Part shown: one piece after another, positions 1 through 15,512 of the stretch
Position numbering within the stretch: the first letter of the stretch is position 1
Layout of the letters: each line of letters starts with the position of its first letter
Virus record (IMG/VR): IMGVR_UViG_2617270964_000015
Source: a virus
Lineage: Duplodnaviria > Heunggongvirae > Uroviricota > Caudoviricetes
DNA: 15,512 nt
Direction: 5' to 3' (one strand)
Notes under the pieces: generated by a model
Seen by the model: only the letters and a program-made list of their open reading frames with translations
Database searches by the model: none
What the model was told of the DNA's origin: nothing
Program-made: the position numbers and the translations under genes

Positions 1-375
1 GACGAACAGTGGGGCTATGTCGGGGCTAAATCGCGCCAGCGCTGGCTGTTTTACGCGTATGACAGTCTCCGGAAGACGGTTGTTGCGCACGTATTCGGTG
101 AACGCACTATGGCGACGCTGGGGCGTCTTATGAGCCTGCTGTCACCCTTTGACGTGGTGATATGGATGACGGATGGCTGGCCGCTGTATGAATCCCGCCT
201 GAAGGGAAAGCTGCACGTAATCAGCAAGCGATATACGCAGCGAATTGAGCGGCATAACCTGAATCTGAGGCAGCACCTGGCACGGCTGGGACGGAAGTCG
301 CTGTCGTTCTCAAAATCGGTGGAGCTGCATGACAAAGTCATCGGGCATTATCTGAACATAAAACACTATCAATAA
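1..375 (+). CDS. insB: IS1 transposase InsB reading frame, 5'-truncated by the window edge
   Basis: Open frame from base 1 to TAA at 373-375; the ORF track reports the internal ATG at 109 (88 aa) but the frame is open from base 1 and matches InsB throughout. IS1 transposase is made as an InsA-InsB fusion by frameshifting, so an independent start is not expected. Confidence 0.85.
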
Positions 376-390
376 GTTGGAGTCATTACC
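1..390 (+). mobile_element. IS1: IS1 insertion sequence, 3' portion (element continues beyond the left window edge)
   Basis: Frame-1 translation from base 1 reads [44 protein letters not shown]...HYLNIKHYQ, which I recognise as the C-terminal part of IS1 InsB. Stop TAA at 373-375 is followed by the IS1 right terminal inverted repeat atcaataagttggagtcattacc at 368-390. Left end and any target-site duplication are outside the window. Confidence 0.9.
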
Positions 391-1257
391 GCCAGTTAGC
401 GCGCCATTTACACGTATTTCTATATTTTTCTCAGATTCAGAAAGCAGAGATATTATTCTTTTTGCACAGAGTTCGTCTATTTCATATAGATTCATTATTT
501 TCTTACCAAGAACAAACTCAATTTTTACAGGCAAGTCTTCAAAACTATTAATCATCTGATCGTCATTTTCATCATAAATCTCACTCTCGTTTTTTTTGAT
601 ATCAAAATCATCTGTTTCAAAATCTTCCTCGTACTCAAAATGATCAGCCATTTTTAACTCCTCTGGATAAATTAAATCAAAAATTTTTGTATTATAAATA
701 ACCGCATAAGCCAAATTATTTGAGATTAATAAAACATCACCAACTTCAATATCAACAAGACTTCTGTAACATGTTTTACTAAATCCAATTACAAAATGAA
801 TGGAGCAATATAACGATTTTTTGTCTAACGCTGGAGCGTTTCCGTATTGGCAGACTGTGACTTTATCTAACCAAAGATTCAATTCCCCTCTCCATATTCT
901 TATTAGTGGTTGAGCAGGGCTCAATACTCCATCAAATACTTTACCTACGCGCAAACGATTATATTTTAGTTCAGGATGCTTTAGATTTAACGGGGAACTG
1001 GATAAACTGAGCCATTCCCCTATTAACCTTTCCGTTTCTGGCATCAAAGCCATCCCAGCGAGCTCAGATGAAATTAAGGGAAATATTTCTCCAAGCAATA
1101 CCCATCCAGACCAGCTGCCACTCTCTTCTGCTATCGGTAGCCATTTAGCACTAAATTCGGGCATTAATAATGCAACATCTTCGCCATTTTCTTTCCAATT
1201 TTGAAAAGTGGTTTCAAACGTATGAGTGTTTCGATTTACTTTCCTCAGACCGAACAT
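391..1257 (-). pseudogene. Type III secretion SctQ/FliN-like protein with SpoA domains, 3' end cut by the IS1 insertion
   Basis: ATG at 1257-1255 with an AAGGA-like RBS upstream. The translation contains two SpoA-like segments, LVDIEVGDVLLISNN and DLPVKIEFVLGKKIMNLYEIDELCAKRIISLLSESEKNIEIRVNG, the second aligning closely to the FliN/SpaO C-terminal SpoA domain. The ORF-track frame (310..1257) continues into IS1 sequence, so the last ~27 codons are IS1-derived and the native C-terminus is lost. AT-rich by eye. Confidence 0.45.
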
Positions 1258-1388
1258 TAACTTTCATCCTTCTGATCGTTTTCGAATTTGCTTTCATTTT
1301 CTTGCTCCTCATAAGGCTGATGTCGTTGTCCTTGTCGTTCATCTTGCTCAGTCAATACCCAACGTTGTGCTGTAACTCATTATGAAAA

Positions 1389-2999
1389 CTATTTAATTCC
1401 CTCATCATTGATAAGATTGGACATCTCTTTCAACATGAGAGTCATTGAAGCTTTCGACCAATTTAGCGGAATGATAGGGCTTGGCGCTTCATGCAAAGTT
1501 CCCGACTTGTGGATATAGTTATAGCTTTCGGGAAGTGCCATTTCTGGTACGCTCCTGCCATTTGCACCAATCATATTCTCGCCTGTTATTTGGGCCAATG
1601 ATCTATTCATAAATTGCACTGAGTCATTCAAATACTCTTCTTTTCTTGATTCTTTATAAACAATTGCTGCTGATTTTGCATACCATGAGTCAAAAAACCA
1701 TTCTGCTTCTGTTGATGGAATGAAGCTCTTTTCTCTTTTCACATGTGAATTTTGATCGGTATCGGTTTTAATATCATTGAACCAAAAATTTGCCGACTGA
1801 TAATTATCCTTCTCGTATCTTTTTATACCATACGGACCTGCTAGTTTTTTAACTATTTTTAGAACCTGCTCTTTTCTTCTGGTGTTTATCTTTGCAAGAT
1901 TTGCAGGATAAATAACATTAAGTAAAGCCGCATCGGCTTCTCTGTAATGTTTATCTTTTTCCAGATAACCTGGGGATTCTCCCCCTAAATCAAGCTGTAA
2001 CGTTATTCTTTCATAACCTTTATCTATGAGGTGGTTCAACCTCGTTGTTGAAAGAGGTTCATCCAGTTCATTGGCTTTAGCTTCGCGTAGTAAATCAGAG
2101 ACAAAAACAGAGTCTTTCTTCGAGAGTAAGTTCGACAAACGTTCCAGTCCAGAGGTCACCAGTGCAACGGAAGATGTGTTTAATCGGGCATCTTCTTCCC
2201 ATGCTCCGGAATCTTCCATAACATAGAAATTGGCTTTATCCAGATAAGCAATCAGCAGCGCAACCGATTTTAATCGGTCACCTTTTTGCCAATCTTCAGC
2301 GTTAATTGTACCAGTGTCGATTGCTTGTATAAGGAGATCAAGATAAAGACCTAACGCATCATTTTGTTTATGGTTCCACAGCTGCGGCTTGCCTTCTTCC
2401 TGCACATCTGCCATCACGGGGAAGTTGCTGTCAAATCGGATATGCACAGCATTCATTTGCCCGGGAACTCCATCCAGTCGTTTGGGGTTGCTAATGACGT
2501 CCTGCATCCGCTTAATCTGGTCGGGCGTAGACATATAATCCCACAGGGTGAGCAGAACCTTTTTTGCGGCTACACTATTTCCCTGATCTGATACTAATGC
2601 CATATAGCCCCATAAACTATCCCTCAGCCAGACAGCATCATAGTGGGTTTCTGCCGCTGTTTTGTCATCTTCGAAAGTAGAAGCAAGAATAAATGTTCCC
2701 CAGGGTTTCTCCGTCAACGTTAACTTTCGTGTGTTTTCTGTTAATGTTAACAACCCTTGAATTTCGTCTTTGGTATAGTGGCTCTTTATTTCATTTTTTA
2801 ATTTGGCTGAGTGAATCAGAAGACGATAATTAGGGTACTTATCTGGATTTAACGATAAATAACTTTTATCTGTTGCTGCCCCCGTGGAATTAAGAATGTT
2901 AAATACAGATTCACTCGTCACTTCTGCCCCTGTCGCCTGGCATGTGCCGCACGAAAATATACCAGCGAGCAGAAGAGTTAATGCAGATTTCCCTTTCAT
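1389..2999 (-). CDS. Glycoside hydrolase family 15-like (glucoamylase-like) exported protein or lipoprotein
   Basis: Long ORF (track 1389..3041 begins at a GTG). The ATG at 2999-2997 gives MKGKSALTLLLAGIFSCGTCQA, a signal peptide with a possible lipobox cysteine. Internal DSGAWEED resembles the GH15 catalytic-region signature (S-G-x-W-E-E). AT-rich gene. Confidence 0.6.
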   Translation of the reverse strand: MKGKSALTLLLAGIFSCGTCQATGAEVTSESVFNILNSTGAATDKSYLSLNPDKYPNYRLLIHSAKLKNEIKSHYTKDEIQGLLTLTENTRKLTLTEKPWGTFILASTFEDDKTAAETHYDAVWLRDSLWGYMALVSDQGNSVAAKKVLLTLWDYMSTPDQIKRMQDVISNPKRLDGVPGQMNAVHIRFDSNFPVMADVQEEGKPQLWNHKQNDALGLYLDLLIQAIDTGTINAEDWQKGDRLKSVALLIAYLDKANFYVMEDSGAWEEDARLNTSSVALVTSGLERLSNLLSKKDSVFVSDLLREAKANELDEPLSTTRLNHLIDKGYERITLQLDLGGESPGYLEKDKHYREADAALLNVIYPANLAKINTRRKEQVLKIVKKLAGPYGIKRYEKDNYQSANFWFNDIKTDTDQNSHVKREKSFIPSTEAEWFFDSWYAKSAAIVYKESRKEEYLNDSVQFMNRSLAQITGENMIGANGRSVPEMALPESYNYIHKSGTLHEAPSPIIPLNWSKASMTLMLKEMSNLINDEGIK

Positions 3000-3306
3000 A
3001 AAATATTCCATCAATCGTTTGTTAAAAGCGTAGATAACCACTTATTTAACAACTTGAAAATAAGGTGTTTTACCTGGGTTGTTACAAAAGGATTGCATTG
3101 CGTAAACGCTTTTTATTTACAACAAAATGGGGAAATATTACGGCGATTGCGAAAAGTCTGAAGCGATTGAATTAAGATAATATAGAAAATCAGATACAGC
3201 AAAAATGGCAGATTGATGAGGCGAAGATAAATTGGAGCGGCGAAGGGAACAATACAACAAGCAACAAGACCAGTAATAAAGGCACATTCTCGAGTTCTAA
3301 AATAGA

Positions 3307-3328
3307 TTCTATACACATTTCTATACAC
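3307..3328. repeat. Near-tandem 10-bp direct repeat ttctatacac x2 (2-bp spacer) in the AT-rich upstream region of the GH15-like gene
   Basis: ttctatacac at 3307-3316 and again at 3319-3328. Confidence 0.5.
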
Positions 3329-3830
3329 GTTTATCACTCGCTTGGGGATTACACATCCCTGTTATCCGTGATCAAGCTGGTGGCGTTCCTGTTGCAGCAC
3401 AACGGAAACAGGTAGTGAACATCCGTTAAGTTTGCTTGCTGGTTACCGGGTTGAAATGGGTTAGTAGGGGGAGCGGTACGCATTCCACGTATCGGTTTCG
3501 TATCCGGTGGATGTTCTGCGTACTTTTTTGCACAAGACCAGTAATGGCGGTCTTTCCGCTGGTACGCACTTTTCTTTTTGCGTACCACTTTTGCGCACTT
3601 TTTCAAGGTCGGATCACAGATTCCCACCATTATGGGACCAGTTGAAGGGGCCGAACAAATCAATAGCTGTGGTGGTATCGTTTTGCATGTCAGGTTTTGA
3701 CAGGTTTTTATGGACTCCGAAAACTCACTGCACCAGATGCGCAATACATCGCGCTCATTTCGTTAACTAACGTCGCGCGCGTACTTGTCGCAAAATGTCG
3801 CAATTTTGCGTTATCGGGAATATCAGCAAG

Positions 3831-4115
3831 TTACCGCCGCAACCGTTCCGGCTTCTTCCAGTGGTAAGTAATTTTCTCCTTTTCCCGATGCATCTCCACG
3901 CGGCGACGGTATGCCAGCAACCCGAGAACTTTGGTGCGTATGTTGCGCATATCAACGCCGTTAAGCTCGATACCATCGCGGCGCATCACCTCAGCAACAA
4001 CACGCGCGTAATTTTCAGCGGTCACGCTGTCCGGCTGCGTGGCCTCCTGTGTGCCTGTAGCCTGGCTGATTCCGGTAATACTGCGGATTATCCCGAGCAC
4101 TTCGGCTTCAGTCAT
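3831..4115 (-). CDS. Hypothetical protein (~94 aa)
   Basis: Minus-strand ORF; ATG at 4115-4113 lies 8 nt downstream of a GGAGG Shine-Dalgarno (on the coding strand). A second in-frame ATG is at 4121-4119. The longer ORF-track start at 4364 would overlap the upstream lipoprotein gene. No recognisable motif. Confidence 0.35.
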   Translation of the reverse strand: MTEAEVLGIIRSITGISQATGTQEATQPDSVTAENYARVVAEVMRRDGIELNGVDMRNIRTKVLGLLAYRRRVEMHREKEKITYHWKKPERLRR

Positions 4116-4203
4116 TGTCATGGCCTCCGTAGTGATTAGGGGAGTGATGCTGTAATTGTGGCTGCTGGATCCTAGAAGGTGAAGCAGCCTACCAGCACAA
4201 TGT

Positions 4204-5256
4204 TTAGTACCCTCGAGCAGAGTAGACACGGGCCATTCCTGCCCAATGCGAAAACAGGATTTCATACTTGACTGGATTGTAATTAATGCTGCCATCCAGG
4301 GCGGCCGCATTCCATGCCCCGTCTGAAATAGTACGGTCGCTGGCTGTTTTCCCCCACTCGACAATGCTCCTCGCTATGCCCTGAACACATGCGCGATTTA
4401 ATGCCGTCTCACCAACATATGCCCCAGCGTCTGAACATGACTTCATACTCAGATCCAGGCTATTCCTGAAAAATTCCAGCCCGGCAATTGACATAAACCA
4501 GCGACCATTAGCGTATGCCACGCCATCGTTTCTTATTGTGAATTTAATAGTGTGCAGAGCATCAACAATCATCTGTTGCTCAGCTGTTGGATTCTGCCAT
4601 AACACGAGATCAATCGTTTTTTCAGAAGCCTTAGACTCTTCTTTCTCACGCTTGATGCGTTCGTCACGTTCAGCCCGGTATCGCTTTTGGTTTTCGTTAC
4701 GTAACTTCTGGTATTCAGAGGCGAGCTTATCCCGTTCCTGTGCAAAAGTAGCCAGACTCGTTTTAAAATCGCTTTCGTTGACTGTAACAAGCCCCATGCT
4801 CCAGCGATCATTTCCATAATCAGTATAGATAGCGTCAACTTTTGCCGGATTGCTCAATGCTATGGCTAGGTTAACCAGAATCTTCGAGGCTTCCTCACCA
4901 GTTTTGGAGCTATTGTCAAACCTGGATAGTTCCCCGACTCCATTGCCCCCATATTCATGGTAAGCAGCGTAAAACACAGGGATTGTCTGAGGTTTACTAT
5001 TAACCGCCTGGATAATACTTTTATCGTCGCACGTCAGCCCGTCCCACTTAAAGAGACTGCCACCACCGCTTTTGTATGCCTCACAATCATCGATACCCAG
5101 ACGAACCAACGCAGTCCAGCCGGGGCGCTTCTTATACTTGTCGCTTTTGGCGATATGCATTTGTGTTAACGCTTTTGCGGGATCGATCTTCCCCGCGGTG
5201 CAGCCTGTGAACATTAACGCCAAAGAGGTTAAAGCAATGCGATTGATTAAATTCAT
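4204..5256 (-). CDS. Putative lipoprotein with a central coiled-coil segment
   Basis: ORF 4204..5289; the internal ATG at 5256-5254 gives MNLINRIALTSLALMFTGCTAGK, an N-terminal signal with a lipobox-like cysteine. The middle is rich in charged residues (ERDKLASEYQKLRNENQKRYRAERDERIKREKEESKASEK), typical of coiled coil. Start at 5289 is also possible. Stop TAA at 4206-4204. Confidence 0.6.
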   Translation of the reverse strand: MNLINRIALTSLALMFTGCTAGKIDPAKALTQMHIAKSDKYKKRPGWTALVRLGIDDCEAYKSGGGSLFKWDGLTCDDKSIIQAVNSKPQTIPVFYAAYHEYGGNGVGELSRFDNSSKTGEEASKILVNLAIALSNPAKVDAIYTDYGNDRWSMGLVTVNESDFKTSLATFAQERDKLASEYQKLRNENQKRYRAERDERIKREKEESKASEKTIDLVLWQNPTAEQQMIVDALHTIKFTIRNDGVAYANGRWFMSIAGLEFFRNSLDLSMKSCSDAGAYVGETALNRACVQGIARSIVEWGKTASDRTISDGAWNAAALDGSINYNPVKYEILFSHWAGMARVYSARGY

Positions 5257-5335
5257 TATCCTTGTGTCCAGAGTTAGGTCGACCGGCATAGCTTACCCGT
5301 GGAGAAATGAATCGTCGAATGAGTTTGGTCGGGAG

Positions 5336-6007
5336 TTATTCCACCAGCAAAAATGGCGTTGCCCGGTCAATAACGTTGATGCCAATTAACGAGCTAACAT
5401 TGCGACCATTCACAATGCTATCCCGTTCAAGCAAATGCGCTATTTTTTCTACTTCATACCAGTATTGAGCCATGAGGGCTTTGGTCTTTTCAACGAGTTT
5501 AGAAAGCATTAACTCCCTGTTAATTCGCTTATCTGTAGCGCAGATTAAATCGAGCATGTCATTTACGTTAGCCATGTCATAGCGATGAGGCAGCGAATAC
5601 TTTTTGTTGAAAATATCGTTGTTTTCGTAAAGGGCTTCGCTTACTGGTCCGGCGAGGGATACAAAAGCGGCCTTTATTGCATCGCGCTTTATACCATCCG
5701 CATAGTAACGTATGAAAGGGATAACTTTACCATCCCGCCCAACTACACCAGATTTACTATCCCGCAAACGCCCGAGATCGTGGCTGTGAATTATGCTGTG
5801 TTTAACAACGCCCAAACACTTGGCCTCATGTACATGTTCGCCAGCAACGTAACCGTATTCATCCATAACGGCGATAACCTGTACATCTAAGCGAATAAGC
5901 CATGCAGCTACTGCATGGCCCGCTTCGTGGAATGCTACACATCGTTTACCATCGCCTATCCAGTTATAGAACATTTCCTGCTCATATATCTGGTGAATGG
6001 CGCCCAT
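5336..6007 (-). CDS. Stand-alone FtsH/peptidase-M41-like HExxH zinc metalloprotease domain protein (no AAA ATPase domain)
   Basis: ATG at 6007-6005 overlaps the upstream stop (TAATG). The translation carries CVAFHEAGHAVAAWL, with the HEAGH codons at about 5914-5928 on the minus strand, resembling the FtsH protease-domain zinc motif (HEAGHA). Downstream SLAGPVSEALYEN and NVNDMLDLICATDK resemble later FtsH protease-domain segments. At 223 aa it is too short to include an ATPase module. Confidence 0.6.
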   Translation of the reverse strand: MGAIHQIYEQEMFYNWIGDGKRCVAFHEAGHAVAAWLIRLDVQVIAVMDEYGYVAGEHVHEAKCLGVVKHSIIHSHDLGRLRDSKSGVVGRDGKVIPFIRYYADGIKRDAIKAAFVSLAGPVSEALYENNDIFNKKYSLPHRYDMANVNDMLDLICATDKRINRELMLSKLVEKTKALMAQYWYEVEKIAHLLERDSIVNGRNVSSLIGINVIDRATPFLLVE

Positions 6008-6183
6008 TACGCGCCCTCGCTTGCCAGTGAGGCCAGAGCCTTAGCCATGAGGCCGCGGGCAATCTGGTGAACGGTGGGAGCGACGCCGAGATTGGAGCGC
6101 TGGCGTTCACGTTCCTGAATGTTGCGTATGGCCTGCATCTGCTCGGCGGACAGCAGGACCGGCTTAACGTTTGGCTTTCTCAT
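6007..6183 (-). CDS. Small basic protein (~58 aa), translationally coupled to the protease-domain gene
   Basis: The ORF-track frame 6007..6276 begins at a TTG (6276-6274, shown as M). The ATG at 6183-6181 gives MRKPNVKPVLLSAEQMQAIRNIQERERQRSNLGVAPTVHQIARGLMAKALASLASEGA; an ATG at 6207-6205 is also in frame. Stop TAA (6009-6007) overlaps the downstream ATG. The true start is uncertain. Confidence 0.35.
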   Translation of the reverse strand: MRKPNVKPVLLSAEQMQAIRNIQERERQRSNLGVAPTVHQIARGLMAKALASLASEGA

Positions 6184-6358
6184 TCTGTTCACTCCAGAAC
6201 CGTGCATTTGATTCGTTGAGTTGCTGCAGGTTGCGACTCTGGCGATCGAAGTTATTGCGTGCCTTTGCCGCTTCAAGATCCTGACGGGTCAGCATCGGGC
6301 GGTGGGCGCGCTGTGGGTTGCCTGCGGCTAATTTCGGGTCATAGATAGGCATGCTCAT
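6164..6358 (-). CDS. Small hypothetical protein (64 aa)
   Basis: ATG at 6358-6356 sits 6 nt after the stop of the 183-aa gene and is preceded by AAAGAG. The 3' end overlaps the start region of the 58-aa ORF in another frame by about 20 nt. Confidence 0.4.
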   Translation of the reverse strand: MSMPIYDPKLAAGNPQRAHRPMLTRQDLEAAKARNNFDRQSRNLQQLNESNARFWSEQNEKAKR

Positions 6359-6364
6359 ATCTCT

Positions 6365-6916
6365 TTAGTGTTTTTTGCCCCAGAAGGTGGCGTTGTCAGC
6401 ATTGATGCTGCGGATTGCGTCTCCTGTAGAAATTATTTTCGGAGCGATATTGTTTGCTTTCATGTAGTCGCCAACCTGCTCGAGTATATCGATAGCCTGA
6501 TCCAGCTGGATTTCTGACATTGGGGTAGGGTGTACGGCGCTGAACGCCTCAGCAGGGGCGTAGCGCAGCACATCGAGCGCAACGATGCGCGGGTCGGCGT
6601 CGGGCAGTGCTGAATCGTATTTCGGCGCTACGGCACGTACCAGACGCATGAACTCAGCATTCATTGCTATCGGTGCCGTGGAAGTAGCAGACGTGCCATT
6701 CAAACCGCGGGAAATCATATCACTGTCGCGGGTGTACATGCGGCGCAGGCGGTCGCCGGTGGCGATGCGCATTTTGCGTTCTTTCTCGAGTGTCGTTGCA
6801 AGACTTGCAATGATGGTCGCAACGGTTCCGCTGCACTGGAACTCCTCTTTACTGCCGTCGGCATACGTCACCACGCCATCTTCGCCAGTCACGGCGATGT
6901 TTGTAATATCTTTCAT
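6365..6916 (-). CDS. Hypothetical protein (183 aa), first gene of a four-gene cassette
   Basis: ATG at 6916-6914 with GAGG 8 nt upstream on the coding strand. Stop TAA at 6367-6365. No motif I can assign. Confidence 0.6.
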   Translation of the reverse strand: MKDITNIAVTGEDGVVTYADGSKEEFQCSGTVATIIASLATTLEKERKMRIATGDRLRRMYTRDSDMISRGLNGTSATSTAPIAMNAEFMRLVRAVAPKYDSALPDADPRIVALDVLRYAPAEAFSAVHPTPMSEIQLDQAIDILEQVGDYMKANNIAPKIISTGDAIRSINADNATFWGKKH

Positions 6917-8339: not shown

Positions 8340-10145
8340 TTATGTTCTGTCGTTAATCCCTGTTGCTGCTGGCAACCAGCCATCAGCATCATCATCTAAC
8401 AGAACATTTGTTATCACTCGCCCTTTATCCGGGCCTTTAGTGCATTTAGCCCGCTTATACTCCTTTCCGTATTCCGCCATAGCACCCGGCATATCAGTGC
8501 CAAAGCGTTTCAGTGATACTGGTTTTCCCAGACCATGCGCTGACATATAGGCTAAATAAGCATGATACAGATATCGCCTCGGGCTAAATGGCACTATTCC
8601 CGCATTACCCACCATCATTCCTTCACATTTAACCAACGACATCAGATATCCGCAAAAGTCCACCAGTGAATCACCCTCACGTTTTATCACCAGAGCCTCT
8701 TCTGATTTCTGCTGCTCATATAACAGACGTCTGGCTTCATCCTGGTCAGAAAAACGAGTAAGCAGGTGGCGAATCACTACCGCCAGTTCGCCTTCTATTT
8801 TTTCCACCAGCATGGGATCGCGTTCGTTCTCCGGTACGACCTCAGAGAAATTAAATATCACCCTACGACGCGAGATCCCCCCGCTTCGGTCACTGAATGA
8901 CATGGCGTTATTGTTTACTGCCAGCACTACCGCCGGAATACGAGTGGAGTATGGGGCTTTATGTTTCGGGTCGATCGCCACCTTGTCACCACCAGTAATT
9001 GCCTTAATTCCTGCACCATCACCAGCGTAGCGGGTCATATCCGGCATGATAATCAGCGAAAAGCCAACGACTAACGCGCGTTCCCTTGCGTCTTCCAGCG
9101 CCTTCATGCTTGCCGATACTGTATTGGCCTTACCCGCCAGCATGGTACAAATCTCCGCCATCACACTTTTACCGCTTCCGCCCGGCCCCGTTACCTCAAG
9201 GAATAACTGCCAGTCGTACCGGTTCGCCAGTACCATGAATAATGCCGCCAGTACGCGATCTGCTTTACGATCGTTATTTGCCACCGAACGACGCAGCCAC
9301 TTCCAGAAATTCGGCGCATGTGTTGCCAGTGTTTCCCCCTCTGCTGGTGGGCTGAACGGTAATTCACTGGCATTTAACAACCAGTCATTTTTGTTATGCT
9401 CCCGAAAATTTCCTGTCCGGGTATCAAATACCCCGTTACTGAATCCAATAAGATTCCTGTCTGCCCCGCCCATAACAGGCAGGCTCAATTTCATTGTGTC
9501 TACGGCAAATTTAATGGCGTTTTGCGAATAACTGATTCCAGCATCAATAAAAATCTTCGCCATAGACCGCTGGAGTTCCTTATCAGATACAGGCTCCCAG
9601 ACAATTCCGTTGTAATGGTGAACTACATCAGAATCGTCATTTATAGCCAGTGCCCTTCCATAATATTCAAGCAATACTTCCCCTCTCTGGCTGGCTCCCA
9701 TCTGATTTAGTGCTGGCCTGGGTAGGTCACTATTTTTTGTGACTAATTTCATCGCTGAAACTTCCCCGCGCTCTGCCTGTTCGCGGATCCGTTGCAGGTA
9801 ATCGCGCCAGTTCTCCGGCTCCCGGTCGGTGATGCCTTTGTATAATTTCGCCTCCTGTACGCCAGCCAGTGCCAGTTTTTCAGCGATAGCATTGATCTGG
9901 ATTGGTTCGATCTCCCCCGCGAGATAGACACGCGCAAAGCGGCGTTCATCGTCGACAATGCGGATATTCGCCAGGTCTGCCAGTTGCTTTGGCCCCAAGT
10001 AAACAGGTGGTACGTTATCGCCGTGCTTCCGTCCTTCGCTTTCAATCCAGTGTTGAGCATGGGAGTAAGCATCCGTCCCGGCAAAAATGATTACCTCAGT
10101 GAATTTATCCTTCGGCTGATATTTCAAATTCGGTGCGTTTTTCAC
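8340..10145 (-). CDS. P4-family phage/plasmid primase-like replication protein with P-loop NTPase module
   Basis: 601-aa ORF with Walker A GPGGSGKS. Overall resemblance to satellite/PICI primase-replication proteins is from memory only. Start is GTG at 10145-10143 with GGAGG just upstream, overlapping the upstream gene's stop (GTGA). Stop TAA at 8342-8340. Confidence 0.8.
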   Translation of the reverse strand: MKNAPNLKYQPKDKFTEVIIFAGTDAYSHAQHWIESEGRKHGDNVPPVYLGPKQLADLANIRIVDDERRFARVYLAGEIEPIQINAIAEKLALAGVQEAKLYKGITDREPENWRDYLQRIREQAERGEVSAMKLVTKNSDLPRPALNQMGASQRGEVLLEYYGRALAINDDSDVVHHYNGIVWEPVSDKELQRSMAKIFIDAGISYSQNAIKFAVDTMKLSLPVMGGADRNLIGFSNGVFDTRTGNFREHNKNDWLLNASELPFSPPAEGETLATHAPNFWKWLRRSVANNDRKADRVLAALFMVLANRYDWQLFLEVTGPGGSGKSVMAEICTMLAGKANTVSASMKALEDARERALVVGFSLIIMPDMTRYAGDGAGIKAITGGDKVAIDPKHKAPYSTRIPAVVLAVNNNAMSFSDRSGGISRRRVIFNFSEVVPENERDPMLVEKIEGELAVVIRHLLTRFSDQDEARRLLYEQQKSEEALVIKREGDSLVDFCGYLMSLVKCEGMMVGNAGIVPFSPRRYLYHAYLAYMSAHGLGKPVSLKRFGTDMPGAMAEYGKEYKRAKCTKGPDKGRVITNVLLDDDADGWLPAATGINDRT

Positions 10146-10432
10146 TTCTTACCTCCCGCAACCAACATTGCCCGGATTTTTTTAATATTCGTGGCTGCAC
10201 GTCTCGCCACTGCCTGTTGTTTGTTTTCAAGCAGAATAAAATCACGCTCAAACTGACGGCGCGGCATTACGCAGTCATATTCGTAAGCCTCACGGCGGTA
10301 GGTGATATTGCCTGGCGTAACGTGACGAATAACCACTCGTCCCCCACGCCTGGTGTCGCGGTAAATATCTCCGTGTCTGATTTCAGGTCGAGAGAGGCCG
10401 CTGGCAGTAAAGCCAGAATTTTTCTTTTTCAT
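10142..10432 (-). CDS. Hypothetical basic protein (96 aa), translationally coupled to the primase gene
   Basis: ATG at 10432-10430; stop TGA overlaps the primase GTG start. Lys/Arg-rich, no motif assigned. Confidence 0.5.
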   Translation of the reverse strand: MKKKNSGFTASGLSRPEIRHGDIYRDTRRGGRVVIRHVTPGNITYRREAYEYDCVMPRRQFERDFILLENKQQAVARRAATNIKKIRAMLVAGGKK

Positions 10433-10485
10433 GGTTTTATTTTCCTGTCAGCAGTTCCGGTTTTATTTCCGCACGAATACAGAGT

Positions 10486-10638
10486 TCAGAAAAAAAATTC
10501 AGGAGAACCAACAATCTCATTACTTTTCAGTCGGCATTGTGATTTCACTTTCCCTTTATCCAAGTAAACCAGCACGCGTCCGGTGAAATCATCTGGCACA
10601 CTCAGGGTAATTGTCATTGTTGCTTGCTGATTATCCAT
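10486..10638 (-). CDS. Small ORF (50 aa) carrying the third copy of an FTG repeat unit; likely the out-of-frame 3' part of the upstream gene
   Basis: ATG at 10638-10636 lies immediately after the homopolymer. The translation MDNQQATMTITLSVPDDFTGRVLVYLDKGKV... repeats the FTG-x-LV unit found twice in the upstream ORF. Confidence 0.3.
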   Translation of the reverse strand: MDNQQATMTITLSVPDDFTGRVLVYLDKGKVKSQCRLKSNEIVGSPEFFF

Positions 10639-11000
10639 GATTCCCCCCCCCCCTGAATAACCTGATAACCGCAACTGGTCAGCAATTCGATAAATTCCGG
10701 CAATGTGCCGAAACAGCAATCATCACGCAGACGTTCGCGGGATACCTCAACGTCGTTTTCATAATGGCTCACCATGCGTCCGGTAAAATGCAAATCATCA
10801 TCGTGATGGCACGTTGACGGTTTAATCAGTCGCGCACGCTCTGCCAGTTCCAGCAATGCTTCAACACTTCCGGCAATTGCACCATCCGGCAGGTGGTAAT
10901 TACGCACTATGCGCCCGTTCTCCACATGGACCAGTAGCTGCCCGGTAAATTTCTCGTCAAACTGAATGCGGTTAAGGTCGGTAAGTGACAGGTTAATCAT
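10614..11000 (-). CDS. Hypothetical protein with two internal repeats (128 aa as read), ending just after a G11 tract
   Basis: ATG at 11000-10998 overlaps the upstream stop (ATGATTAA). Repeats DEKFTGQLLVHVENGRIV and DLHFTGRMVSHYENDVEV. C-terminus ...VIQGGGESWIISKQQ is encoded across the homopolymer. Confidence 0.5.
   Translation of the reverse strand: MINLSLTDLNRIQFDEKFTGQLLVHVENGRIVRNYHLPDGAIAGSVEALLELAERARLIKPSTCHHDDDLHFTGRMVSHYENDVEVSRERLRDDCCFGTLPEFIELLTSCGYQVIQGGGESWIISKQQ
10643..10653. repeat. Homopolymeric tract C11 (G11 on the coding minus strand) inside a coding region
   Basis: ttcccccccccccctg; eleven consecutive C at 10643-10653. Confidence 0.9.
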
Positions 11001-11358
11001 GGCGCACCTCCTGGCGAATACGGGCGGCGAATACCATCACGCAGCCATCAGGAGATTGCTGGCGTGCTTCCTGTTCGCTGGTGGCCTCGATGTGAATCAC
11101 GCGCGGTTGTGCCGTACTCAGGGCGATAAAACGCCAGATAGAATTGTTTTCGCATTTCTGAATAAACAGCGTGTTTTCTTCGCGCCCTTTCCATGTTGCC
11201 GAGATATAGCCCATGTCATTGAGCATCTCGCAGGCATCCACCAGCGTATCAGCGGCTACGTGTACAGTGTTTTTACCGTCAGCTATGCAATCACGGTGCA
11301 CCGCCAGGAAGGTGTATATAAATTTAGGGTGAGTTTGGGTATGCTGTGTTCCAGCCAT
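10993..11358 (-). CDS. Hypothetical protein (121 aa), first gene of the primase operon
   Basis: ATG at 11358-11356 with GAGG upstream on the coding strand. This is the 3' third of the 382-aa ORF-track entry 10993..12141, whose upstream part crosses the divergent regulatory region and a plus-strand gene. Stop overlaps the next start. Confidence 0.5.
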   Translation of the reverse strand: MAGTQHTQTHPKFIYTFLAVHRDCIADGKNTVHVAADTLVDACEMLNDMGYISATWKGREENTLFIQKCENNSIWRFIALSTAQPRVIHIEATSEQEARQQSPDGCVMVFAARIRQEVRHD

Positions 11359-11557
11359 AATCGTTACCTCGTTTAACGGTTTGGTTAGAAGCCCCGTTAC
11401 TGCTCCAACAGTGCGGGGCTTCGTTGTTTCAATTGCTGAATTGCATGTATCAGCCCTTGTGGTATTCAGATTACATTTTGGTGAATACCATTTCAAGTCT
11501 TTTTTGGTATTCACTTTTGTATTACACTGCATCCCGTTATTAATCGGAGGTGCAAAC
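11359..11557. promoter_or_regulatory. Divergent intergenic control region with hairpin and GGTATTCA operator-like repeats
   Basis: Stem-loop gaagccccg-(17 nt)-cggggcttc at about 11390-11425. Three copies of GGTATTCA / TGAATACC at about 11460-11516, one inverted. GGAGG at 11546-11550 precedes the ATG at 11558. Confidence 0.45.
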
Positions 11558-11863
11558 ATGTCCACGAGTTCTGTTAACAATAAGTCACAGCAACTGAATG
11601 CCAGATTTCCACATGAAGTAGTGAGTGGCATTGAGGCATCCCTACAGCCAGGGGAAACTAAAGCGAATTTTATAGTTACGGCTGTACGCGGTGAGATCGC
11701 CCGCCGCCAGGCAGAAGGAAGCGGAGAAAACCCCCTAGTTTCTTCGCTCGATGCGCTGGCGCAGGTGGAAAAAATCGGTGTCAAAGCTGCCGAGGAGATC
11801 GGGCAACTCGTCACCGTCGCGCGTGAAGAACTCCAGCGGCGCAAGGCCAAAGAACAGGAGTAG
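11558..11863 (+). CDS. Ribbon-helix-helix (Arc/MetJ-type) DNA-binding regulator, 101 aa
   Basis: ATG at 11558 seven nt after GGAGG; the ORF-track start at 11381 is unlikely because it crosses the control region. QQLNARFPHEVVSGIEA then ANFIVTAVRGEIARRQ fits the beta-strand-helix-helix pattern of Arc-like repressors. It is the only confident plus-strand gene inside the element. Confidence 0.55.
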   Translation: MSTSSVNNKSQQLNARFPHEVVSGIEASLQPGETKANFIVTAVRGEIARRQAEGSGENPLVSSLDALAQVEKIGVKAAEEIGQLVTVAREELQRRKAKEQE

Positions 11864-12087
11864 TTGATCAGCACCGGGCAACCAGAAAAAATCGTATCAG
11901 TTGCGCCACCAGCAAATTTTTTTGCTTTCCGGACGACGTTGCCAACGGCATTTTGCAGCAAAATATTCCGCATTTCTGGCGTACTGTAGTAACGGTGATC
12001 AGCGCCTTCACTCTGTGCGACCACAACGCTATAATCTGCCTCGTAGACAGTAAGCAATATAGCGCAGTAGAATATTCGTTCACAAAG

Positions 12088-12119
12088 GCGCTCCGGCAAC
12101 GGGGCGCTTTCTCTTTTTG
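12088..12119 (+). terminator. Intrinsic terminator-like hairpin, plus strand
   Basis: gcgctcc-ggcaac-ggggcgc (7-bp stem with one G-U pair, 12088-12107) followed by tttctctttttg (12108-12119). It lies about 225 nt past the stop of the plus-strand regulator gene and about 27 nt past the stop of the convergent minus-strand gene. Confidence 0.5.
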
Positions 12120-12133
12120 TAACGGTCAGAGCG

Positions 12134-12982
12134 TTACACATGGCTGTTTTCCTCCATGCGACGGGCTAACCAACGCTGCGAAAGACGAATTAATTCAGCT
12201 TTCCGCTGGTGGTAGTCCTGGCCTAACTCAATCAGCGTGATATTGCTCTGCTCAAGGTAAGAAAGGTGCTCAAGCTGCAACGTGCTCATGTGGTCGCGTG
12301 GTTCGCCTGTAATGCCGTTCGCCTGCGCCCACTGTTTTGCAGTCATGCCACCCAGCACGATACGCGCCAGCATATTGGCTTCCGTGGTGTAGTGGTGCTG
12401 GAGTGTGTTTTTACCCAGCTCAGCCCGGTATGCTTCCAGCGCGGCGCACATCGGCTTAAAGTAGCTGGCAACGGTGATACGGGCTTTCAGTTCCCGGCGT
12501 AACGCTGCGGAACGCACTGGCGCTACCTTGTGTAGCTCCTCCTCGCATTTGATGAAGTACTGACGAACGGCACGGCCCTGTTCGGTGCGTTCGACCATCG
12601 CCAGTTCTTTTGCCATGTTCGTGGAGATCAAATAGTCTTCACTGCGACGATCACCGCCGCGCTTTGTTGTCCAATCAGAATCAAACTGTTCAATATTTAC
12701 ACTTTGGTTCCCCCGTTTCGGGGAATCAAAGTACAAATTTTCTACAACTTTAAAATCCACGCCATTTTTAAATCCGTACTCATCAATACGTCCTTTAATC
12801 CAGGTAGTGAAATCACGGCCTCCCCCGAGCGCCTTATGCAACGCTCTGGCGCTAACAATATTGGTTTCACGCCCGCCAATAACGCCGGAAATAACCGGGA
12901 TAATTTCGCCGAAATTTTGCAGATTCTGGTTTTCAGGCCGAACTAAGCCCTGCCCCTGTACGGGCGTTTTTCGCTGTTTCAT
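12134..12982 (-). CDS. AntA/AntB-family phage antirepressor-like protein
   Basis: ATG at 12982-12980 with AGGAG 5 nt upstream. N-terminal region ARALHKALGGGRDFTTWIKGRIDEYGFKNGVDFKV ... MAKELAMVERTEQGRAVRQYFIKCEE matches the AntA-domain pattern I recall (DF-TWIK-RI--YGF, AKELAMVER--G---RQYFI-CE). Confidence 0.65.
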   Translation of the reverse strand: MKQRKTPVQGQGLVRPENQNLQNFGEIIPVISGVIGGRETNIVSARALHKALGGGRDFTTWIKGRIDEYGFKNGVDFKVVENLYFDSPKRGNQSVNIEQFDSDWTTKRGGDRRSEDYLISTNMAKELAMVERTEQGRAVRQYFIKCEEELHKVAPVRSAALRRELKARITVASYFKPMCAALEAYRAELGKNTLQHHYTTEANMLARIVLGGMTAKQWAQANGITGEPRDHMSTLQLEHLSYLEQSNITLIELGQDYHQRKAELIRLSQRWLARRMEENSHV

Positions 12983-13059: not shown

Positions 13060-13260
13060 TCAGGTAGCTGTTCCGCGTGATTCCGCAATACGCTGATTAA
13101 TCCACTCGTCAATTTCACTCTCAACGAAAGCAATAGCTCGCGAGCCAATTTTTACAGGTTTAGGAAAACTCCCTTGGGCAATGAGTTTATAGATCCATGC
13201 CCTTCCATAGCCTGTACGGCGCATGGTTTCTGACATACGAATTAAATTTTGCTTATCCAT
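13060..13260 (-). CDS. alpA: AlpA-family transcriptional regulator / excisionase-like HTH protein
   Basis: MDKQNLIRMSETMRRTGYGRAWIYKLIAQGSFPKPVKIGSRAIAFVESEIDEWINQR matches the AlpA family (small HTH protein ending -EIDEWI-QR). ATG at 13260-13258 has AGGAG 6 nt upstream; the ORF-track start at 13305 is less likely. It lies downstream of int on the same strand, as in P4-like and PICI elements. Confidence 0.75.
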   Translation of the reverse strand: MDKQNLIRMSETMRRTGYGRAWIYKLIAQGSFPKPVKIGSRAIAFVESEIDEWINQRIAESRGTAT

Positions 13261-13317
13261 ACACTTCTCCTGATGCATATAAAAGTCTGTTTCTGGAATA
13301 TACACAAGAGAAGGATG

Positions 13318-14297: not shown

Positions 14298-15512
14298 TCA
14301 ATCTAATTTTTCAGATTTTATGTAAACAACGTTTCCGCCATGCTCAAGCGAATCCATATAGTCGGCGTACCACTGGAGCATTTCCCGGCGACCATCCAGA
14401 TATTGCGCATGGTTGTATGTGCCACGAATTGAGTTTTTATCGGCGTGCGCAAGCTGTGTCTCTATCCACGCGGTGTTATAGCCCTGCTCATGCAAAATGG
14501 TGCTCATGGTGTGCCGGAATCCATGACCAGTAACGCGCCCGGCGTAGCCAATACGACGAATGAGCACATTCATTGCCATTTCACTCATTGGCTTACTGTG
14601 GTGAATACGACCGGGGAAAATAAACTGATACTGGCCTGTCATGTTTTTTAACTGCTCCAGTATTTTTATCGCCTGTTCTGGTAATGGCACACAATGCGGA
14701 CGGCGCATCTTCATTCGTTCTTTAGGCACTTCCCACAAACGATTATCAAAATCGATCTCCCGCCATTCTGCCTGCCGTAATTCCCCGGGTCTGACACCTG
14801 TCAGAATTAATAGCCGCATTGCCAGTTTGACGATCTGGCTTCCGGTGTACGTATTAAAAACGCGGAAAAATTCCGGCAGTTCGTCGGCCTTCAGATAGGC
14901 GTAATGCTCTTTTTTATGTGGAGCAAATGCGCTCACCAGGTCAGGGGCTGGATTATATTCGGCGCGTCCGGTGATGATTGCGTACCGGAACACCTCGCCA
15001 CATCGCTGGCGAACCTTACGCAATTTTTCAGTCGCACCACGGTCATTAAGACGGGAAAGAACCGCCAGCAATTCCATCGGCTTAATTTCTGCGATCGGCC
15101 TACCGCCAATGTACGGAAAAACATCTTTTTCAAACGTCTCGATCATTTCCTCGGCGTATGACGATGACCACCTGTCGATCCGCTTTTCGTACCATTCGCG
15201 AGCGATACCCTCAAAAGTATTGCCAAATTTGCTCGCCTGTTCTCGCTTTTGGGCTTTTCTGGCCTCACTTGGATTTATACCACCAGCAAGAAGCCTTTTA
15301 GCCTCATCCCTTGCCGCCCTGGCATCAGACAGAGACACATCAGGGTACACACCCAACGACAACATTTTGGGCTTTCCTGCAAACCTGTAGCGCAGTCGCC
15401 ACCCTTTCGAACCGTTCGGCTCAATGAGCAACGAAAGCCCGTTACCGTCATTGAGTGTATAAGCCTTTTCTTTCGGCTTCGCGCGCCTGATGGCAAGGTC
15501 TGAAAGCAGCAT
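14298..15512 (-). CDS. int: Tyrosine recombinase, P4-type phage integrase
   Basis: ATG occupies the last three bases of the window (15512-15510). N-terminus MLLSDLAIRRAKPKEKAYTLNDGNGLSLLIEPNGSKGWRLRYRF is the P4-integrase arm-binding signature. C-terminal catalytic region GHGFRHTMSTIL ... LAHADKNSIRGTYNHAQY carries the R/HxxR/Y residues. Upstream promoter and att site are outside the window. Confidence 0.85.
   Translation of the reverse strand: MLLSDLAIRRAKPKEKAYTLNDGNGLSLLIEPNGSKGWRLRYRFAGKPKMLSLGVYPDVSLSDARAARDEAKRLLAGGINPSEARKAQKREQASKFGNTFEGIAREWYEKRIDRWSSSYAEEMIETFEKDVFPYIGGRPIAEIKPMELLAVLSRLNDRGATEKLRKVRQRCGEVFRYAIITGRAEYNPAPDLVSAFAPHKKEHYAYLKADELPEFFRVFNTYTGSQIVKLAMRLLILTGVRPGELRQAEWREIDFDNRLWEVPKERMKMRRPHCVPLPEQAIKILEQLKNMTGQYQFIFPGRIHHSKPMSEMAMNVLIRRIGYAGRVTGHGFRHTMSTILHEQGYNTAWIETQLAHADKNSIRGTYNHAQYLDGRREMLQWYADYMDSLEHGGNVVYIKSEKLD

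Follow-up and report, generated by a model that had tools for sequence, protein, structure and literature searches.

What is encoded between positions 10486 and 11000 of a 15,512-nt stretch of viral DNA assigned to the Caudoviricetes (IMG/VR record IMGVR_UViG_2617270964_000015; the whole stretch is hereafter called the window), and what might its products do? The original prediction, made from the letters of this window, placed there a single protein of the primase operon, of unknown function, with three copies of an FTG-x-LV unit that could be assigned to no family. We found instead two adjacent and overlapping genes, referred to below as ORF-A and ORF-B (ORF, open reading frame), which carry two units and one unit, respectively, and whose products are, judged by their sequences, members of the Rem family of E. 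coli and other Enterobacterales.

The three peptides from which a single protein had been deduced all lie on the minus strand, in two different frames: ORF-A contains DEKFTGQLLVHVENGRIV and DLHFTGRMVSHYENDVEV, ORF-B contains DDFTGRVLVYLDKGKV, and no single ORF spans 10486-11000. ORF-A (10614-11000, minus strand) encodes a protein of 128 aa here and 121 aa in relatives. Its unit 1 (10818-11000, minus strand; residues 1-61) comprises an N-terminal strand, the FTGQLLVHVENGRIV hairpin and the helix VEALLELAERARLIKP, and its unit 2 (10650-10817, minus strand; residues ~62-117) the FTGRMVSHYENDVEV hairpin, the helix LPEFIELLTSCG and the strand YQVIQ. Unit 3 belongs to ORF-B (10486-10638, minus strand; ATG at 10638, stop at 10486), a one-unit Rem-family paralog of 50 aa here and 66 aa in relatives. 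The two genes meet at a run of eleven G residues (G11, read as C11 on the plus strand; 10643-10653), which also serves as the Shine-Dalgarno region of ORF-B; their overlap, directly 3' of this run, measures 25 nt in the window and 8 nt in relatives. The idea of an internal repetition holds for ORF-A, which harbors a tandem duplication, but no three-repeat protein is encoded.

The similarity between the three units is far beyond chance. In pairwise BLASTP comparisons they match over 38-45 residues, with E-values of 3e-8, 9e-4 and 5e-6, the last for unit 2 against unit 1. A hidden Markov model (HMM) of the family, built from 34 single-unit relatives, was run on 781 ORFs, taken from the window and from three loci, and detected exactly three domains, with independent E-values of 7e-20 for unit 1, 5e-11 for unit 2 and 1e-22 for unit 3 of ORF-B. 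With a second HMM restricted to distant members, close relatives being left out, units 1, 2 and 3 scored 53, 40.5 and 68 bits, as compared to ≤6 bits for the best of the shuffled units (300 shuffles each; ≤3.6 bits for unit 1 and ≤5.7 bits for unit 2). Alignment, family consensus and AlphaFold2 modeling all give a unit of ~45-60 aa, with a beta-hairpin that starts from the FTG motif, followed by an amphipathic helix and a short strand; this replaces the 16-18 aa initially quoted. The 66-aa paralog aligns end to end with residues 1-61 of ORF-A, and the locus thus consists of a gene with two units and, after it, a paralog with one.

Profile searches and structure prediction on a single repeat were among the checks suggested in the original prediction. 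The former led to the Rem family, as detailed below, and AlphaFold2 returned a hairpin-helix model of the single unit with a predicted local distance difference test score (pLDDT) of 87.7, the hairpin spanning residues 21-37 and the helix residues 46-55. The two-unit model was weak (pLDDT 63), too uncertain for fold searches, and displays the same elements twice. A profile search of PDB sequences returned only insignificant matches, to RNF4 and to a phototropin LOV domain (E 0.07-1).

To which family does the unit belong? Direct profile matches in PHROGs link ORF-A to phrog_340 (8e-28, over two stretches) and phrog_2512 (2.5e-24), and ORF-B to phrog_340 (2.4e-14); phrog_340 is an 85-aa single-unit profile, and neither entry carries a functional annotation. 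Scans of both proteins against Pfam and NCBIfam gave nothing beyond a sub-threshold DUF7330 match. The Pfam family PF27490, named 'Rem', is assigned by precomputed matches to P0022 (84% identical to ORF-A) and P0024, from the set of ORF-A orthologs (P0001-P0026; the orthologs of the 66-aa ORF-B are P0067-P0091), and to the distant members P0151 and P0166. Against 3469 ORFs, the family HMM retrieved E. coli K-12 Rem (E 6.5e-7), a Rac-type rem product annotated 'prophage antirepressor' (4.9e-9) and the rem product of PPompW (3.3e-6), and the alignment of the family to that of Rem with hhalign gave a probability of 96.9% and an E-value of 1.7e-10 over 46 columns. Among 1.84 billion representative proteins, the profile found only 71 clusters at E ≤ 1e-3, mostly of 56-90 aa with one unit, and it recovered the Rem homolog P0148. 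Two long matches of the profile searches, P0120 and P0128, were discarded as zinc-knuckle or low-complexity noise.

On the strength of these sequence comparisons, ORF-A and ORF-B are new, uncharacterised members of the Rem family, including a two-unit variant. The novelty is modest, since the family is known and its founding member has an established antirepressor role. The unit is no longer without a family: through Rem, antirepressor of DicA (PMC10448788), it largely corresponds to a known domain with an established role, which goes most of the way to refuting the original prediction on its own terms. Rem-family proteins are typically stand-alone, of ~60-90 aa, and encoded on Enterobacterales mobile elements; ORF-B has this size in relatives and falls below it here, and ORF-A represents the two-unit form with 121-128 aa. 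Two units are found in several independent lineages (P0103-P0105, P0124, P0125 and P0127), and the family consensus reads, in order, a strand, P.DFTGR, hhhxhExG, xhxxxxxL, xxxEhh, a helix (F.ELA..AG) and h.V.P. Members were found, among others, in Escherichia, Salmonella, Serratia, Dickeya, Cronobacter and a Klebsiella phage. In a phage collection of 50,697 records, tblastn found no match to ORF-A and only weak matches to ORF-B; one of the latter, in Klebsiella phage ST16-OXA48phi5.3, was later confirmed as a family member by the HMM.

The unit also occurs fused to Bro-N (P0140), to AntA (P0049) and, weakly, to ORF6N (Gifsy-1 STM2616), all three being N-terminal modules typical of phage antirepressors. 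In the last case (L009, 33513-34076), the C-terminus LLIKIRDGNVKDIRQVGLDMFVGKVEQILSGLRDSGWIVIK of this ORF6N-domain protein matches the unit only weakly (E 0.018 among 2041 ORFs), and STM2616 may, from its sequence, be a distant fusion of the unit domain to an antirepressor-type N-terminus.

The Rem protein of E. coli K-12 (b1561) is an 83-aa product of the Qin cryptic prophage. It was found by iterated PSI-BLAST from GfoA and FsoA, the Gifsy-1 and Fels-1 antirepressors; ectopic expression of rem derepresses the DicA-controlled dicBp 165-fold, and the filamentation that it causes requires dicB/dicF (Ragunathan et al, J Bacteriol 2023; PMC10448788). These small Gifsy and Fels-1 antirepressors were shown to bind short repressors devoid of an autocleavage domain, with an apparent A2B2 stoichiometry, and to detach them from DNA (Lemire et al, PLoS Genet 2011; PMC3121763). 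Judged by sequence, Rem shares with ORF-A and ORF-B a domain of two predicted hairpins, the first of which ends in ...VENG.., then a helix and a short strand (...E.....AG.), and all are small proteins of Enterobacterales mobile elements. They differ in composition, Rem having one extra hairpin plus one full unit without the FTG motif whereas ORF-A has two full units and ORF-B one, and in setting: rem is a lambdoid prophage gene with hokD on one side and ydfU/Q on the other, and ORF-A and ORF-B lie in an operon that runs from an Icd-like gene to the primase gene of a satellite. The identity between Rem and the two proteins is low, and antirepressor activity has been demonstrated for Rem alone. 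The antirepressors GfoA, GftA, GfhA and FsoA of Gifsy and Fels-1 are comparable to the family in size (~70-80 aa) and in predicted hairpin-helix pattern; downstream of both rem and gfoA lies irsA/DUF1367, and fsoA lies in the left operon of its prophage (PMC3121763), as do some family members.

From their homology with E. coli Rem, which counteracts the DicA repressor of Qin, we infer that ORF-A and ORF-B may be tandem Rem-type antirepressor modules of a phage-inducible chromosomal island (PICI), a phage satellite, and that they may act on helper-prophage repressors in a manner analogous to P4 epsilon. We give this reading, the most likely one in our view, about an even chance. The two genes, which are translationally coupled, would be expressed with the early/replication operon of the satellite. 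Their products would bind the short CI-type repressors without autocleavage domain (DicA/GfoR class) of resident lambdoid prophages and would remove them from their operators. With its early operon switched on, the satellite would in this way release a helper prophage from repression or hold an incoming helper in the lytic state. With several divergent units, a broader set of repressors would come within reach, and the two-unit ORF-A may act as a dimer mimic.

In satellite P4, epsilon derepresses the helper prophage P2 by binding its repressor, and this is the role that we propose, by analogy, for ORF-A and ORF-B. The P4 region cI-epsilon-orf151-orf106-alpha resembles our locus in that small satellite genes with 8-nt overlaps are placed between an immunity/kil-type region and the primase gene; in P4 it is cI, epsilon and orf151 that overlap in this way. 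A homology of the family with epsilon or orf151 was considered and rejected: when P4 ORFs of ≥30 aa were searched at E ≤ 10, the family HMM gave only noise, located within the alpha gene. Note also that the element in the window is of the AlpA/PICI type and, unlike P4, lacks sid, delta and psu.

Should the two proteins be active antirepressors, Gram-negative PICI satellites would not simply wait for helper induction but, like P4 towards P2, would themselves set off resident prophages, and the induction and spread of prophage-borne toxin and virulence genes in E. coli would be affected. The Rem assignment also provides a functional lead for a family of "hypothetical proteins".

Several observations weigh against an action on helper-prophage repressors, or against the Rem assignment on which it is built. 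The PF27490 matches are precomputed on orthologs rather than on the window proteins themselves, this family being outside the Pfam set that was scanned. Pairwise BLASTP of Rem against ORF-A gave no match, the likeness being at the profile level only and over ~40-46 residues. Foldseek searches of BFVD and PDB with the unit model returned only hits with E > 0.8, and no structural neighbor informing on the mechanism. The study of Rem does not show a direct Rem-DicA binding (PMC10448788). A homology to the Gifsy antirepressors was not supported either: hhalign of the family against GftA and a Klebsiella homolog gave 2% probability and E 0.023, a comparison of low sensitivity given the few homologs; the HMM reached E 0.0027 against a Gifsy antirepressor in a single targeted comparison only, and the statistical link between Rem and GfoA/GftA was not reproduced (hhalign Rem versus GftA, 0.1% probability, with few homologs at hand). 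The Gifsy antirepressor genes are LexA-controlled, whereas no LexA box was found near the ORF-A/ORF-B operon, with two one-mismatch matches elsewhere in the window as compared to 4.2 expected by chance. The unit is fused once to a CHC2 zinc finger of DnaG-type primases (P0155). Lastly, ORF-B is truncated in the window and ORF-A is absent from the closest relative of the island, in strain EC02 (98.5% identity), and the genes are therefore dispensable for the element.

How do other functions compare? In Qin, Rem acts on the repressor of its own prophage (PMC10448788); this precedent, like Rem-family membership itself, would also suit antirepressors directed at the satellite's own circuit, for instance at the YlcI/YnfO-family protein encoded at 11381-11863 (plus strand), a divergent small gene, conserved in relatives, which the operon faces; such proteins would lock the island in its induced state. 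We regard this as quite unlikely: DicA is a CI-type helix-turn-helix repressor and no such gene adjoins the operon in the window, the ribbon-helix-helix reading of the YlcI/YnfO protein is an interpretation, and the family is also present in prophages downstream of a conventional CI repressor (in the early-left operon of a Serratia prophage and of Klebsiella phage ST16-OXA48phi5.3). A role in replication, as origin-binding or loading factors or other accessory proteins of the P4-type primase/helicase, is what the assignment to the primase operon had suggested. That assignment is correct insofar as both genes are read in the same direction as the primase gene, are translationally coupled to their neighbors and share overlapping start and stop codons with them; family members also occupy the same position upstream of primase in Dickeya and Serratia satellites, as the proposed synteny survey was to find out, and the P0155 fusion points in the same direction. 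The link to replication is weak, because the gene content between the Icd-like and DUF4222 genes is variable, with ORF-A missing in EC02, and because homologs also lie away from any primase, in the prophage early-left operons and beside hok/irsA/Q; the regulatory phenotype demonstrated for Rem is moreover unrelated to replication. We thus consider a replication role to be very unlikely. Finally, the two proteins could have only their fold in common with Rem and serve in the takeover of the host or of a phage through another target (cell division, anti-defence or helper interference), which would suit the presence of an Icd-like division inhibitor gene next to them, the small size, fast evolution and mosaicism of the Rem-type family, and the lack of a structural analog in our searches. 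This is unlikely in our view, as no positive evidence designates a different target, the sole characterised member of the family is an antirepressor, and the unit is found joined to Bro-N, AntA and ORF6N modules.

A different kind of alternative concerns the DNA itself. DNA 95-96% identical to the locus is present in many E. coli chromosomes. Their RefSeq records show a pair of genes, for "hypothetical proteins" of 121 and 66 aa, whose start and stop codons overlap by 8 nt; of 5426 complete E. coli genomes, 419 contain DNA that matches the locus. The window departs from these relatives at two homopolymers. The G11 run is found in none of 89 matching E. coli genomes, the relatives carrying GGGGGTG or G6. 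The second, a run of eight T residues (T8, or A8 on the plus strand; 10490-10497), is one base longer than in relatives (among 176 complete E. coli genomes with a match, only that of STEC379 has T8 and the other 175 have T7) and frameshifts ORF-B, which is truncated after its hairpin from 66 to 50 aa: the protein ends with ...SPEFFF instead of ...SPEFFSELCIRAEIKPELLTGK and loses the helix of unit 3. DNA alignment with the relatives L001 and L002 places this helix and the C-terminus, SELCIRAEIKPELLTGK up to its stop codon, out of frame at 10437-10489 (minus strand); both are intact in the relatives. As read from the sequence, a G10 run would restore the ATGGATAA stop/start overlap, and with a G12 run the two ORFs would become a single in-frame gene for a three-unit protein. 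Tandem small genes with ATGnnTAA overlaps and homopolymer runs can in this way be misread as a single repeat protein.

The G11 tract may be either hypermutable or an assembly error. G11 and T8 could both be homopolymer sequencing or assembly artefacts, the real locus being the standard pair of 121 and 66 aa: both departures are changes in homopolymer length, both are unique or nearly so among the matching genomes, and database proteins fused across the same junctions occur in read-assembly sources. Yet G11 differs from GGGGGTG by four bases and a substitution, beyond the typical one-base homopolymer error, and T8 recurs in a complete genome. We hold an artefact to be possible, if somewhat doubtful; it would bear only on the intactness of ORF-B and not on the identity of the genes. 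At the other extreme, one may picture an AlpA/PICI satellite endowed with a modular, fast-shuffling battery of Rem-type units, including a covalent 'pseudo-dimer', that would derepress heteroimmune helper prophages of the DicA/GfoR class, convergently with P4 epsilon, and in which a hypermutable G-run would switch between separate (G10/G11) and fused three-unit (G12) products. This full scenario seems to us improbable.

Variation between relatives extends to the whole cassette between the Icd-like and DUF4222 genes, which holds one gene in EC02 (ORF-B only), two in the window and in cq9, and four in FDAARGOS_1301, where the additional genes, of 74 and 77 aa, are unrelated; all cassette genes are joined by 8-nt start/stop overlaps. 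Cassette variants were seen at 3531-3764 and 4115-4339 of L002 and at 8504-9068 of L014. The locus is also mosaic within E. coli. Forms of 83-91 aa (P0033, P0038, P0041 and P0043) jump from unit 1 to unit 2 at differing points and, from their sequences, fit deletions that arose independently when the two units recombined. Forms of 181-222 aa (including P0004, P0011, P0012 and P0062) are read-through products, fused at the same G-rich junctions to the neighboring genes of 74 and 77 aa.

The element that carries these genes is a glyU-integrated PICI-type phage satellite. On the minus strand, the gene order is integrase, a 302-aa protein of unknown function, AlpA, AntA, Icd-like, ORF-A, ORF-B, DUF4222, P4-family primase, ProQ/FinO, PerC and uncharacterised cargo. 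AlpA is a hallmark of PICI satellites. Searches for capsid or terminase families found none in the island. The order of genes in the window is that of the published Gram-negative PICI layout (PMC13612085; PMC11773190), and literature searches found no paper describing ORF-A and ORF-B in PICIs. All the following genes are on the minus strand. The tyrosine integrase gene occupies 14298-15512, with a tRNA-Gly attachment site just beyond it in the relative EC02; the AlpA regulator gene lies at 13060-13305 (Pfam Phage_AlpA, 4.3e-19) and an AntA/AntB-type antirepressor gene of the same element, also upstream of ORF-A, at 12134-12982 (Pfam AntA, 1.9e-22). Immediately upstream of ORF-A in the operon, the gene of an Icd-like host cell division inhibitor (10993-11214), identified by the RefSeq annotation of L001 and L002 and by its reading frame, has a stop codon that overlaps the ORF-A ATG by 8 nt (ATGATTAA). 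Downstream of ORF-B are a 96-aa DUF4222 gene (10142-10432; Pfam PF13973, 1.9e-19) and the P4-family primase/helicase gene (8340-10145; D5_N, DUF5906 and Pox_D5), whose start overlaps the DUF4222 stop by 4 nt.

Some minor features of this region were also recorded. The DUF4222 protein contains GGRVVIRHVTPGNITYRRE, a hairpin-like segment that recalls the FTG unit and that the family HMM does not detect. A 382-aa open frame (10993-12141, minus strand) takes in the Icd-like gene and is antisense to the YlcI/YnfO gene. In relatives the annotation, as Icd-like, covers no more than its last 73-121 codons, and most of this frame is probably non-coding. The YlcI/YnfO-family gene, which is divergently transcribed, matches phrog_6522 (5.6e-46), and the N-terminal part of its product may be ribbon-helix-helix-like as far as its sequence indicates, a candidate repressor of the island itself. 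Downstream of PerC, the cargo (3349-6916, minus strand) consists of ORFs of 183, 361 and 223 aa without family assignment, the last with sub-threshold Pfam matches to two families, Peptidase_M41 and Peptidase_M50B, and bearing the name 'peptidase M41' in relatives. The cargo genes gave no hit to a defence system in PADLOC and could be uncharacterised accessory or defence genes. In relatives, the island lies between tRNA-Gly and the E. coli type III secretion system 2 (ETT2) locus (ygeQ/GH15, YscQ-like). At its left end (310-3041, minus strand), the window contains a chromosomal remnant of ETT2 that encodes a GH15-family (ygeQ-like) protein of 550 aa and a protein of 315 aa whose C-terminal domain is of the FliN/YscQ type, and the island boundary therefore lies near 3100-3350.

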